From: a virus
Taxonomy: Duplodnaviria > Heunggongvirae > Uroviricota > Caudoviricetes
Length of the DNA: 64,000 bases
Reading direction: 5' to 3' (one strand)
Virus record (IMG/VR): IMGVR_UViG_2718218360_000008
Below are positions 54,601-57,600 of this stretch, piece by piece (position 1 is the stretch's first letter; each line of letters begins with the position of its first letter). Made by a program: the position numbers.

Positions 54601-57600
54601 TGGGAGGAATGGAAAAAAGTCAGGGAGGTGGTAAAAGTTGCCTGTCCGGAGTGTGGAGGGAAGGGAGAGGTATCCACTGCCTGTAAAGATTGTCGTGGGC
54701 GCGGTGTTGCCATTCATCGTGAAGAGTCGGAAAAACAGGGTGTGCCGGTTTTCAGAAACTGTCAGCGTTGTGGTGGGCGTGGCTATGAAAGATTACCTTC
54801 AACGGAGGCATTTAATGCCATATGTAATGTAACCGATGCCATATCTCTTGATACATGGAAAAAAACAGTTAAACGTTTTTACGATACGCTGGTGGTGCAG
54901 TTTGATATTGAAGAAGCATGGGCAGAACAACAACTGAAAAAGGTGACCAGATAGCTTTGTTGATTTTTCCCGAATCTGTGGTAAATTTGCCCTAACGATG
55001 GGCGTTTTATGCCTGACGTTAGAAGATTTTTTACACCCGTCGCCAGGCGGGTTTTTTTATGACTGAAATCACGCCAGTACAGTAAACGCGCTGGTGGCGG
55101 TGAATACCGGTCTTTCAGCTTGCTGGCTTTTTTGACAAGAGTTATTGGTGTGTCACGTTAACCGAAAAAGGGAAAAAGACATGCTGAAACAGCAGGATAT
55201 GACAGAAACTGCCAGAGCAGTGTTTAATGAATTAAGCGTCACCGAACCGGCGACAGTCGGGGAGATTGCGCAGAATACTTACCTTTCACGCGAACGCTGC
55301 CAGTTAATACTGACCCAGCTTGTTATGGCGGGTCTGGCAGACTATCAGTTCGGTTGTTACAGACGCCTTCAGTCCTGAAGGCTTTTTTATTTGTGGTAAA
55401 TGGGCGACTGGTGGGTGTTAGGGGCACTCACCAGCCATCTGCTCATGCGTCTGGATCACAAGCAAACCTCAGGCCCACTGCTTTGCGCAAAAGCGGTATG
55501 AGCCTATCAGAGACAGGCTTAATGATCCATGTTTAATACTGTAAAAATATCCAGTTGTGAGTTAATCAACGCCGACTGCCTGGAATTTATCCGGTCGTTA
55601 CCCGAAAATTCTGTTGACCTGATAGTCACGGACCCGCCGTACTTTAAAGTGAAGCCTGAGGGCTGGGATAACCAGTGGACGGGTGATGAGGATTACCTGA
55701 AATGGCTGGACCAGTGTCTGGCGCAGTTCTGGCGGGTGCTGAAACCTGCCGGAAGTCTTTACCTGTTCTGTGGCCATCGCCTGGCATCTGACATTGAAAT
55801 CATGATGCGTGAACGCTTCAGTGTGCTGAACCATATTATCTGGGCGAAGCCGTCCGGACGCTGGAACGGGTGCAACAAGGAAAGCCTGAGGGCGTATTTC
55901 CCCGCCACAGAGCGCATTCTGTTCGCGGAACATTATCAGGGGCCGTATCGTCCGAAAGATGCCGGGTATGAGGCGAAGGGCAGGGCACTGAAACAGCATG
56001 TGATGGCTCCGCTGATTTCTTACTTTCGTGATGCGCGTGCTGCCCTGGGGATAACGGCAAAACAGATAGTGGATGCCACAGGAAAGAAAAACATGGTGTC
56101 GCACTGGTTCAGTGCCAGTCAGTGGCAGCTACCGAACGAAAGCGATTATCTGAAATTACAGGCGCTGTTTGCCCGGGTGGCAGAAGAGAAGCATCAGCGC
56201 GGTGAACTGGAAAAGCCCCACCACCAGCTGCTGGAGACGTATACTTCACTGAACCGGCAGTATGCGGAACTGCAGAGTGAATATAAACATCTGCGGCGGT
56301 ATTTTGGCGTGACGGCGCAGGTGCCGTACACGGATGTGTGGACGCATAAACCGGTGCAGTACTATCCCGGGAAACATCCGTGCGAAAAACCGGCAGAAAT
56401 GCTGCAGCAGATAATCAGTGCGAGCAGTCGTCCGGGTGACCTGGTTGCAGATTTCTTCATGGGGTCGGGTTCGACAGTCAAAGCCGCGATGGCGCTGGGG
56501 CGTCGTGCAACTGGCGTTGAGCTGGAGACTGAACGTTTTGAGCAGACGGTCAGGGAAGTACAGGATTTAGTCAGTCAGAACGGATGATATTGCAGGATTA
56601 GTTACGTACCGTTATTATCCTGCGCCCGGCCCTTTAGCTCAGTGGTGAGAGCGAGCGACGCATAATCGCCAGGTCGCTGGTTCGAATCCAGTACAACGCG
56701 CCACACTTATTTTCCCTGGCTCGCTTTTGCGGGCCTTTTTTTAAATGTCTCACAATTCAGGCGGTTGACTGTTGTCTGGTTTGCGGGGAGTTTGTTAAAA
56801 GAAACTGGCATGGTGAACCCCCCTGTGCGGAGGGGCAATCAGCAACCAGGTATATGGGGTAATCGCGGATTCAGGTGCTGGTACTGAATTCACCGGGAGG
56901 CACCCGGCACCATGCAAGAAAAAGAATGTGCATGCAAACATGCCCCTCTCCGGAGGGGCTTTTTTATGGGTAAAAAAATGCCCGAATGGGTTCGGGCAAT
57001 AGCATGAGATACTGATATTGTTGTGTTGTTATCGTGTGGATTTTAACCAGGGTTTATCAGGCTGCGCAACTGCGTGGCCTTTTTTCATTTCTTGGGCTGT
57101 AGTCCCCGTGTGTCATTCAGGCTTCCGGACTACAGCCCACTCCATATCTGATTTAATACACTATCCCGGCCGGGAGGAATAATGACATTTAAACATTATG
57201 ATGTTGTCAGGGCGGCGTCGCCGTCAGACCTTGCGGATGCGCTTGCTCAAAAAATTCGTGAAGGATGGCAACCATATGGTGGGCCGTTTTCTTCGTATAC
57301 GGATGATGGCGCAGCACTTATTCAGGCGATTGTCGCAGAAGGTGATGTGAGCACACCTGTTGTGGTGAAGCCGACAGGTGGAGAAGGTGCAGTAATCAGC
57401 GCCACCAGCGACCCCGGGTATTACTTTGTTGTGGTTCTGGCAGGGCAGTCAAACGGCATGTCGTATGGTGAAGGTCTTCCGCTGCCGGAGACATATGACC
57501 GTCCGGACCCGCGCATTAAGCAGCTGGCGCGTCGCAGTACGGTGACACCGGGCGGTGTCGCCTGTAAATATAACGACATCATTCCGGCGGACCATTGTCT

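Follow-up and report, generated by a model that had tools for sequence, protein, structure and literature searches.

In the window analyzed here (the whole 64,000-nucleotide stretch of DNA of virus record IMGVR_UViG_2718218360_000008), the interval preceding a nanS-p type esterase gene very probably consists of a tRNA cluster that has collapsed, an intrinsic terminator, a 4-nt point at which stx is absent, and a convergent pair of small RNA genes, STnc100 and AgvB. It forms the accessory ('moron') part of the late operon, which depends on Q, of an stx-negative lambdoid prophage. The locus as such is an ordinary, well-known Stx-type prophage locus without toxin genes, and this much is biology that is already known. 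The features are as follows (evidence in parentheses).

54133-54954, plus strand: antiterminator Q gene, 273 aa (Pfam Antiterm PF03589, E = 5e-52).
55529-56587, plus strand: DNA N6/N4 methyltransferase (methylase) gene (Pfam N6_N4_Mtase, E = 7e-44).
56628-56703, plus strand: chimeric pseudo-tRNA, part ileZ and part argO (alignments, blastn, acceptor pairing, ARAGORN, Rfam).
56677-56683, plus strand: crossover zone CTGGTTC, common to the ileZ and argO T-arms (overlapping blastn matches to L002, diagnostic bases, alignments).
56718-56742, plus strand: intrinsic terminator after the tRNA cluster (terminator scan; fold -13.8 kcal/mol, z = -3.9).
56742-56745, no strand: point equivalent to the stx2 cassette, unoccupied, 4 nt (blastn against the Stx2a phage L002).
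56779-56971, plus strand: STnc100-family sRNA gene, related to PasD (Rfam RF02076, 140.4 bits, model positions 1-206 of 206).
56942-56959, plus strand: STnc100's own terminator with T-run (terminator scan).
56973-57034, minus strand: AgvB anti-sRNA gene, a sponge of the GcvB R1 seed (Rfam RF02702, 96.5 bits, model positions 1-62 of 62).
57040-57069, minus strand: putative sigma-70 promoter of AgvB (read by eye from the minus-strand sequence).
57059-57086, plus strand: second terminator-like hairpin, AGGCTGCGCAACTGCGTGGCCT followed by TTTTTT (terminator scan; invariant in five loci).
57093-57139, plus strand: hairpin (13-bp stem) immediately before the ribosome-binding site of nanS-p (fold -28 kcal/mol, z = -5.67).
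57182-59128, plus strand: nanS-p type sialate O-acetylesterase gene, 648 aa (Pfam DUF1737, SASA and DUF6645).

The late operon that holds the interval begins at the Q gene, whose counterpart in the near-identical locus L001 is labelled 'antitermination protein' by PGAP; in a near-identical strain the prophage adjoins ompW. The initial annotation, made from the sequence alone, had placed a tRNA-like element between Q and nanS. The right neighbor of the interval is indeed nanS-p, which in related phages goes under the names NanS, yjhS or SASA esterase, but the immediate left neighbor of the element is the methylase gene, and Q lies 1.7 kb upstream. The synteny with Stx phages that had been claimed was borne out. 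The gene order in the Stx2a phage Stx2_EH1910 is Q, a hypothetical gene, methylase, ileZ, argN, argO, stx2A, stx2B, STnc100 and nanS/yjhS, and from the end of Q through the methylase gene into ileZ the window is 98.3% identical to this phage. The late-region order of Stx phages (Q, tRNA cluster, cassette position, STnc100-type sRNA, nanS-p, lysis genes) is present.

The tRNA-like element exists, but it starts at 56628, 10 nt before the start of 56638 given initially. When the covariance-model check proposed for it was run, the Rfam tRNA model matched 56634-56693 with 37.3 bits (gathering score 29) and covered model positions 7-64 of 71 only; intact ileZ gives a full match of 72.5 bits, about twice that score. 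All three arms that had been described as tRNA-like (D, anticodon with CAU, and T) are covered by this alignment and are intact with their conserved loop bases, as is the CCA end. The two defects that had been pointed out were also found. The acceptor strands GGCCCTT and ACAACGC pair at 2 of 7 positions, against 7 of 7 in each of ileZ and argO, and position 33 is a G (56660), whereas it is a T in the intact ileZ copies aligned (the Stx2a phage L002, L003, L004, L008 and L009). A U at position 33 is near-universal in tRNAs. The minimum-free-energy fold of the element is no better than that of shuffled sequences (z = -0.97, versus -4.0 for ileZ). ARAGORN detected no tRNA anywhere in the window and none in L001, and finds three in each intact locus scanned (L002-L004). 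PGAP calls an identical element 'tRNA-Met' without a pseudogene flag; this call is 71 nt long and begins inside the 5' acceptor strand, and with ARAGORN rejecting the element the software prediction of a canonical tRNA is a nominal one. To judge from its sequence, the element is a dead, non-functional tRNA gene.

Blastn with the intact tRNA genes revealed two sources. Positions 1-64 of ileZ (tRNA-Ile2, CAU) correspond to 56628-56691 (62/64 identities, E = 1e-27), and positions 46-77 of argO (tRNA-Arg, UCU) to 56672-56703. The element is thus ileZ from 56628 into the T-arm, and argO from the T-arm through ACAACGC-GCCA. The bases flanking the crossover zone are diagnostic, G56676 being of the ileZ type and G56684 of the argO type. 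The 3' acceptor strand and the trailer match argO base for base and do not correspond to a mutated ileZ; the 5' strand of argO itself, GCGTTGT, pairs with ACAACGC at 7 of 7 positions. The fusion of the argO 3' acceptor strand to an ileZ body explains why the acceptor stem cannot form. In alignments with loci that keep three intact tRNAs, the element has the same position and flanks as the ileZ-argN-argO cluster upstream of stx in Stx phages. It also shares sequence with this cluster, its 5' 56 nt being ileZ and its 3' 27 nt argO. It differs from the cluster in that an internal deletion of 174-176 bp (76 nt from the start of ileZ to the end of argO, versus 250-252 nt in the parents) has taken argN away and in that U33 has become G, one non-functional hybrid being left. 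The element, as read from these alignments, is an ileZ'::'argO deletion chimera and not a remnant degraded by point mutations. The idea of a single degenerate tRNA was given up because of this argO origin of the 3' end.

The T-arms of ileZ and argO are nearly identical, and recombination between them, within CTGGTTC, would have removed the 174-176 bp and collapsed the cluster to one dead gene. Deletion through unequal recombination between neighboring similar tRNA genes is a general phenomenon. The present case resembles it in that the crossover lies in a short stretch common to two adjacent tRNA genes and a hybrid results. It is unlike it in that the parents differ in the amino acid they accept and their acceptor stems are unrelated, which would be why the chimera is dead rather than a working hybrid. 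No published description of ileZ/argN/argO hybrids was found in the literature searched.

It is possible, though rather unlikely, that the chimera arose not by internal deletion but as the joint of an unequal crossover between two phages, in which ileZ came from a methylase-type, Stx2a-like parent and argO from an stx-less prophage; a single event would then have removed argN, as well as stx if the Stx2a-like parent carried it. The fusion could be of this kind because the left flank is Stx2a-phage-like and the right flank is like that of other stx-less prophages. The mosaic boundary falls at the chimera junction: on the left side, the flank and the body of ileZ agree with Stx2_EH1910 (AATCGCC, with an identical upstream region), and on the right side, the trailer of argO and the 5' part of STnc100 are an exact match to NZRM3614 but not to EH1910. 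However, strain MS20653 is parent-like and already combines Q, a hypothetical gene, the methylase gene and three tRNAs, all intact, with the window-type right flank. Since this intact combination exists, a simple internal deletion is sufficient, and the view that the chimera is necessarily an inter-phage joint is weakened. The product is identical under either route.

Downstream of the deletion chimera, 56707-57181 had initially been taken as mere non-coding DNA with hairpins. This view does not hold, as the hairpins are those of STnc100 (140 bits), AgvB (96.5 bits) and their terminators. The 475 bp downstream of the pseudo-tRNA contain, in this order, a terminator, STnc100, AgvB, a second terminator and a hairpin, after which nanS-p follows. 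The post-tRNA terminator is a GGCTCGC-TTTT-GCGGGCC stem-loop followed by seven T; its stem is identical in the Stx2a phage L002, where it precedes the stx2 promoter.

The STnc100 match lies far above the gathering score of 47. A consensus structure based on nine copies has 34 pairs, four of them with compensatory changes and few broken, the sample being small and its sequences related. The gene is like STnc100 (Rfam RF02076) and its PasD relatives (Zhu, Shabalina & Storz 2026 preprint) in its full-length match and in helices kept with compensatory changes, and differs from the copy after stx2B in a shorter central variable region (68% identity). A published report places STnc100 75 nt downstream of stx2, and the PasD/STnc100-esterase-holin arrangement has already been described. 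We found the STnc100/AgvB module downstream of stx2B, downstream of stx1B and in stx-less loci. A conserved box is seen upstream of STnc100, and no STnc100 promoter passed a consensus scan of 54900-57300. A 48-aa minus-strand ORF (56795-56941) overlies STnc100; it was judged non-coding, and PGAP annotates its counterpart as 'incomplete hypothetical protein'.

AgvB (gathering score 56) is identical to the Rfam RF02702 consensus at 62 of 62 positions. It has CGAUAACAACACAACAA as its 5' region and then a Rho-independent terminator, and the gene is convergent with STnc100. The 5' variable region, CGAUAACAACACAACAAUAUC, carries CACAACA, the GcvB R1 target consensus defined by Tree et al. 2014 (PMC4104026). 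The 3' terminator hairpin is UGCCCGAA-CCCA-UUCGGGCA followed by a U-run (terminator scan and fold), and the fold of AgvB has z = -3.75. In all these respects (62/62 to the family consensus, CACAACA, terminator hairpin) it is like AgvB (EcOnc01a/b; RF02702) of the Sakai prophages Sp10 and Sp17, and no sequence difference from Sakai AgvB was detected. According to Tree et al. 2014 (PMC4104026), lysogens produce AgvB, which binds Hfq and uses CACAACA to pair with the R1 seed of GcvB; DppA and related transport mRNAs are thereby freed from repression, and growth in bovine rectal mucus is aided. Hfq binding and derepression of GcvB targets were demonstrated there with a Sakai sequence identical to the present one. 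By analogy, AgvB of the window is predicted to bind Hfq and to relieve GcvB repression. Its putative promoter would consist of TTGCGC (57069-57064), an 18-nt spacer and TAAAAT (57045-57040), with a start at C57034; the consensus promoter scan returned no sigma-70 site in 54900-57300 at its thresholds, this one included. Other Rfam matches in the interval were below their gathering scores. That of AsxR (43 bits) was set aside because AsxR and AgvB have a 3' region in common, and those of OmrA-B, STnc370 and leader peptides were taken as chance.

The second terminator-like hairpin (57059-57086) overlaps the putative -35 region of AgvB on the opposite strand. The hairpin upstream of nanS-p shows no difference in L003 and L004, and phi296 retains part of it. 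A 54-aa ORF (57018-57182, TTG start) that overlies the AgvB promoter region and the conserved RNA hairpins was judged non-coding.

For EHEC, Tree et al. (2014, Mol Cell 55:199; PMC4104026) described lambdoid prophages with convergent sRNA genes at the PR' 'moron' insertion site. The interval agrees with that site in lying downstream of Q/PR' and upstream of a conserved esterase ORF, and in its convergent longer plus-strand sRNA and ~60-nt minus-strand anti-sRNA with the same AgvB sequence. It differs in that it has no moron coding sequence (no stx) and in that the tRNA cluster has collapsed. The late strand thus carries, in order, the collapsed tRNA, the intrinsic terminator, the unoccupied stx point and STnc100, with AgvB on the opposite strand and each sRNA gene having its own terminator. 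The terminators may silence nanS-p and the lysis genes in the lysogen, and after induction Q-modified polymerase would read through them.

The position of the stx slot was mapped by local blastn; a global MAFFT alignment with the Stx2a phage misaligned across the 1.3-kb cassette. Window positions 56672-56741 correspond to L002 5950-6018, and 56746-56964 to L002 7354-7594. Thus the stx2 cassette (promoter, stx2A and stx2B; 1,335 bp, L002 6019-7353) corresponds to the 4-nt gap at 56742-56745, and the point where Stx phages carry stxAB is here unoccupied. The slot is consequently not the ~470 bp of leftover DNA envisaged at first, the rest of which is the STnc100/AgvB module. The absence of stx that had been noted was confirmed, as searches of the whole window with the stx1 and stx2 cassettes (blastn and tblastn) gave chance-level matches only and no stx remnant. 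No flanking repeats are present at the slot. More than 1,000 genomes have the same seamless junction, in some loci beside intact tRNAs, and so do stx-less phage isolates such as phi296. A 29-bp sequence present at the slot in PA8 and O103 was considered as an stx scar and rejected: it also precedes the second STnc100 unit of an Stx1c phage and occurs in the stx-less phi296, and is therefore part of the region upstream of STnc100.

The initial annotation regarded the locus as an emptied or never-filled stx slot. The unoccupied point stands; for 'emptied' there is no positive evidence, given the lack of a remnant and the widespread junction, and the slot may have been emptied or may never have been filled. 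Its full version, one tRNA decayed by point mutations and ~470 bp left after deletion of stxAB, we consider improbable. The Stx-phage synteny with the 98.3% identical left flank agrees with it, G33 is a genuine point mutation, and repeated loss of stx from prophages has been raised as one possibility (Zhu, Shabalina & Storz 2026 preprint). However, the argO origin of the 3' acceptor strand and trailer refutes its tRNA part; the ~470 bp hold functional sRNA genes, conserved and present downstream of stx in Stx phages as well; and the 4-nt gap free of remnants and repeats is a junction shared with loci that have intact tRNAs and with stx-less phages.

The distribution of the deletion chimera was determined with a junction-specific 64-nt query against 5,426 complete E. 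coli genomes and 50,697 phage records. The query matched 190 E. coli genomes, 160 of them at 100% identity, with up to two copies per genome; the junction was absent from all 50,697 phage records. Copies with 100% identity necessarily carry G33, and the U33-to-G change was seen in every chimera copy examined. The chimera-bearing genomes (about 160) include O157:H7, O111, O103 and O145, and the chimera is found on at least two different left flanks. The copy of EL361 has a further change, the loss of one G of the conserved D-loop GG, which is consistent with decay. Among the matches listed, RefSeq/PGAP labels the element tRNA-Met in every genome with the full-length junction.

Such a distribution of identical copies over several serotypes and left flanks, together with three preserved arms and a CCA end but no acceptor stem, could point to a co-opted tRNA-like module that processes or structures the late or lysogenic transcript, serves as a decoy titrating a tRNA-modifying or tRNA-binding enzyme, or is a source of tRNA-like fragments. 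We regard this as very improbable, as 100% identity fits recent spread with the flanking module without any need for selection, the EL361 copy has lost a conserved base, and phage records lack the chimera altogether. That the element is a working tRNA-Met or tRNA-Ile2, in line with its RefSeq label, its intact arms and its CCA end, is the least credible reading of all in view of the 2/7 acceptor pairing, G33, the negative ARAGORN results in the window and L001, the partial Rfam match with half the intact-ileZ score, the fold z of -0.97 versus -4.0, and a 71-nt PGAP call that starts inside the acceptor strand.

These results do not change the current understanding of Stx phages. They place the boundaries of the stx2 cassette at a point, 4 nt wide, that follows the post-tRNA terminator and precedes the box upstream of STnc100. 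About 160 complete RefSeq E. coli genomes carry the dead hybrid as a normal tRNA-Met, for which a pseudogene flag is warranted, and the mislabelled chimera makes phage-borne rare-codon tRNAs look more numerous in EHEC than they are. If co-option were true after all, the spread across EHEC serotypes and left flanks would reflect selection. The chimera junction is a clean marker that looks to be of single origin, and it could be used to trace the exchange of late-region modules among EHEC prophages. Finally, AgvB, an RNA whose role in fitness in the bovine reservoir has been demonstrated, lies in a region that could be read as empty.

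The interval between a DNA methyltransferase gene and a nanS-p type esterase gene contains a tRNA-like element followed by 475 bp of DNA that the initial annotation had described as ~470 bp of non-coding sequence with hairpins. The Rfam and terminator scans showed that this DNA holds two sRNA genes, STnc100 and AgvB, and terminators that account for most of those hairpins. The features of the interval and of the prophage around it are as follows:

40446-41576, minus strand: integrase ORF
44950-45001, minus strand: DicF (Rfam, above gathering score)
49930-50003, plus strand: isrK (Rfam, above gathering score)
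50029-50112, plus strand: C4 antisense RNA (Rfam, above gathering score)
50816-50990, plus strand: sok antitoxin RNA (Rfam, above gathering score)
54133-54954: antiterminator Q gene, 1.7 kb upstream of the interval (Pfam Antiterm)
55529-56587: DNA methyltransferase gene, left neighbour (Pfam N6_N4_Mtase)
56718-56742: post-tRNA terminator
56779-56971, plus strand: STnc100 sRNA (Rfam, 140.4 bits, full length)
56942-56959: STnc100 terminator
56973-57034, minus strand: AgvB sRNA (Rfam, 96.5 bits, consensus identity 62/62)
56998-56979, minus strand: AgvB terminator
57059-57080, plus strand: second plus-strand terminator
57093-57139: hairpin with a 13-bp stem (-28 kcal/mol, z = -5.7), just 5' of the nanS-p ribosome-binding site
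57182-59128: esterase gene of nanS-p type, 648 aa, right neighbour (Pfam DUF1737, SASA and DUF6645)

ARAGORN found no tRNA anywhere in the 64-kb window. The Rfam tRNA model matched 56634-56693 with 37.3 bits (gathering score 29), but only over model positions 7-64, corresponding to the D, anticodon and T arms, with the acceptor stem outside the match. The element, GGCCCTT-TA-GCTC...CAT...GGTTCGAATCC...ACAACGC-GCCA, spans 56628-56703 and hence starts 10 nt earlier than had been assigned. The CAU anticodon, the G at position 33 (56660) and the acceptor mispairing described initially were all confirmed, the acceptor strands forming two of seven pairs. Its minimum-free-energy fold was similar to that of shuffled sequence (z = -0.97); intact ileZ gave z = -4.0.

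Related prophages keep at this position a cluster of three genes, ileZ (CAU), argN (UCG) and argO (UCU). When the window was aligned with five loci retaining this cluster, it followed ileZ from its first base up to GGTCGCTGGTTC in the T-arm, and argO from CTGGTTCGAATCCAGTACAACGCGCCA on, including the argO 3' trailer. The 3' strand ACAACGC appeared unpairable because it belongs to argO, whose 5' strand GCGTTGT forms 7/7 pairs with it. Local blastn alignments to the ileZ and argO sides overlap at 56672-56691, and diagnostic bases (G56676, ileZ-type; G56684, argO-type) locate the crossover within the heptamer CTGGTTC (56677-56683), which both genes contain; the TTCGAAT T-loop is already present in some ileZ variants, which would extend the shared stretch to 15 nt. 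Intact loci measure 250-252 nt between the start of ileZ and the end of argO, against 76 nt in the window, so that 174-176 bp were lost, including all of argN, for which no match was found in the window. Judged from these alignments and this loss, the element is an ileZ'::'argO deletion chimera with an additional U33-to-G change, a better explanation than the degenerate remnant proposed at first.

An unequal crossover between two phages would also fit: the left flank and ileZ body match the Stx2a phage Stx2_EH1910 (98.3% identity over a stretch that begins at the Q gene's end and reaches into ileZ), and the argO trailer and STnc100 start are identical to the stx-less prophage of NZRM3614, whose left flank differs. 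However, strain MS20653 has the full architecture intact (Q of 822 nt, hypothetical gene, methylase, three tRNAs and the window-type right flank), so that a simple internal deletion suffices. Either route would give the same product. Erosion of a tRNA by drift is ruled out by the base-level ileZ-then-argO structure and the 174-176 bp loss.

The distribution of the chimera was analyzed with a 64-nt junction-spanning query (56640-56703), designed so that neither parent tRNA gives a 28-nt exact word. It matched 190 of 5,426 complete E. coli genomes, with at most two copies per genome, and none of 50,697 phage records, which include >200 Stx-converting phage entries. The 160 matches at 100% identity necessarily carry G33, and those listed include O157:H7, O111:H8/NM, O103:H2 and O145 strains. 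PGAP labels the element "tRNA-Met" without a pseudogene flag, in the near-identical locus L001 as well as in the RefSeq genome rows listed; the 71-nt call (L001 4046-4116) equals window 56633-56703, and its start thus falls inside the acceptor 5' strand. The copy in E. coli EL361 (locus L010, 594-664) has a different left flank, no methylase, and an extra change in the D-loop at the conserved GG (GTGG to GTAG) while keeping G33, which indicates that the module moves between prophage backbones and that decay continues. Together, these data are consistent with a chimera that arose once, spread along with the late-region module and is still decaying.

Stx2_EH1910 carries, in this order, Q, a hypothetical gene, methylase, ileZ, argN, argO, stx2A, stx2B, STnc100, iraM-like gene, yjhS/nanS. 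Window 56672-56741 aligned with positions 5950-6018 of this phage locus (argO 3' end and the post-tRNA terminator), and 56746-56964 with 7354-7594, so that 1,335 bp comprising the stx2 promoter and stx2AB correspond to 4 nt, 56742-56745. The seamless terminator-to-STnc100 junction occurs in >1,000 genomes, often with intact argO, and in stx-less phage isolates, vB_EcoP_phi296 among them, three tRNAs are followed by the sRNA region and then by NanS. These alignments and junctions confirm the proposed synteny with Stx phages and show that the slot is genuinely unoccupied. The suggestion that it had been emptied fared less well: neither DNA nor protein remnants of stx1 or stx2 were found anywhere in the window, no direct repeats flanking the stx2 cassette were found, and nothing points to earlier filling. 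Sequence conserved on both sides means that homologous exchange could add or remove the cassette without trace. A 29-bp segment at the slot in the PA8 and O103 loci was rejected as an stx scar, as it recurs 5' of the second STnc100 unit of an Stx1c phage.

The consensus structure of STnc100 comprises 34 pairs, four of them with compensatory changes among nine aligned copies from seven loci. At 56812, which lies in unpaired sequence 5' of the first hairpin, the window has one C, whereas every other copy examined has T (GGTGAACCCCCC versus GGTGAATCCCCC). Inspected copies are preceded by a conserved box, TTAAAT-N5-TC(A/T)CAATTCAG-N2-AGTTGA. Two tandem units lie 3' of stx1B in the Stx1c phage (L005 2305-2516 and 2578-2791), and two units ~280 nt apart lie 3' of the tRNA cluster in MS20653 (L009 2865-3055 and 3333-3542). 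PGAP places an "incomplete hypothetical protein" pseudo-CDS over STnc100 (minus strand, 56798-56941). On the minus strand, AgvB start C57034 is preceded by TTGCGC, an 18-nt spacer and TAAAAT, which we regard only as a putative promoter because the consensus scan listed none. The 57093-57139 hairpin has a T-run on neither strand; AgvB-type loci share it unchanged, and phi296 retains part of it.

The region downstream of PR' (Q-antiterminated) in lambdoid prophages tolerates moron insertions, and sRNA genes in convergent orientation separate the coding sequence of the moron from a conserved phage ORF, as with AsxR and its convergent partner 3' of stx2B in Sp5 (Tree et al. 2014, PMC4104026). The interval has exactly this layout. 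AgvB (EcOnc01a/b), located in Sp10 and Sp17, is an Hfq-associated primary transcript of ~60 nt whose CACAACA motif base-pairs with the R1 seed of GcvB; it lifts the repression that GcvB exerts on DppA, and when both copies are deleted, competitiveness falls in bovine terminal rectal mucus (Tree et al. 2014, PMC4104026). STnc100 has been located 75 nt downstream of stx2 (PMC12370729) and structurally linked to PasD, in a PasD-esterase-holin-lysozyme arrangement (bioRxiv 10.64898/2026.05.13.724894).

Window 40271-64000 is 99.98% colinear with a single ompW-abutting prophage of E. coli SCPM-O-B-7615. This colinearity begins only at 40271, upstream of which lies a further phage block that itself contains large repeats. 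Same-orientation repeats of 97-98% identity (1-12072 versus 22388-34437; 12085-15432 versus 60648-64000) together with this boundary suggest that prophages are duplicated or arranged in tandem at a single site. Two terminator-like hairpins directly 3' of Q (54988-55004 and 55035-55052) probably represent the tR' region of the short transcript from PR', a position which we take to be that where StxS-type sRNA arises in Stx phages.

In the lysogen, AgvB would be transcribed from its own promoter to its own terminator, as shown elsewhere for AgvB, and STnc100 probably likewise; the extra plus-strand terminators would keep nanS-p and the lysis genes insulated. Once the prophage is induced, RNA polymerase modified by Q would read from PR' through the entire interval, such read-through being established lambdoid biology. 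The chimeric tRNA most likely contributes nothing as a tRNA, and the rare-codon tRNAs supplied by related prophages have been lost from this one. The locus thus belongs to known biology, a well-described moron/sRNA locus with AgvB and STnc100, and calls for a minor annotation correction, a dead chimera being carried as "tRNA-Met" in the RefSeq genome rows listed.
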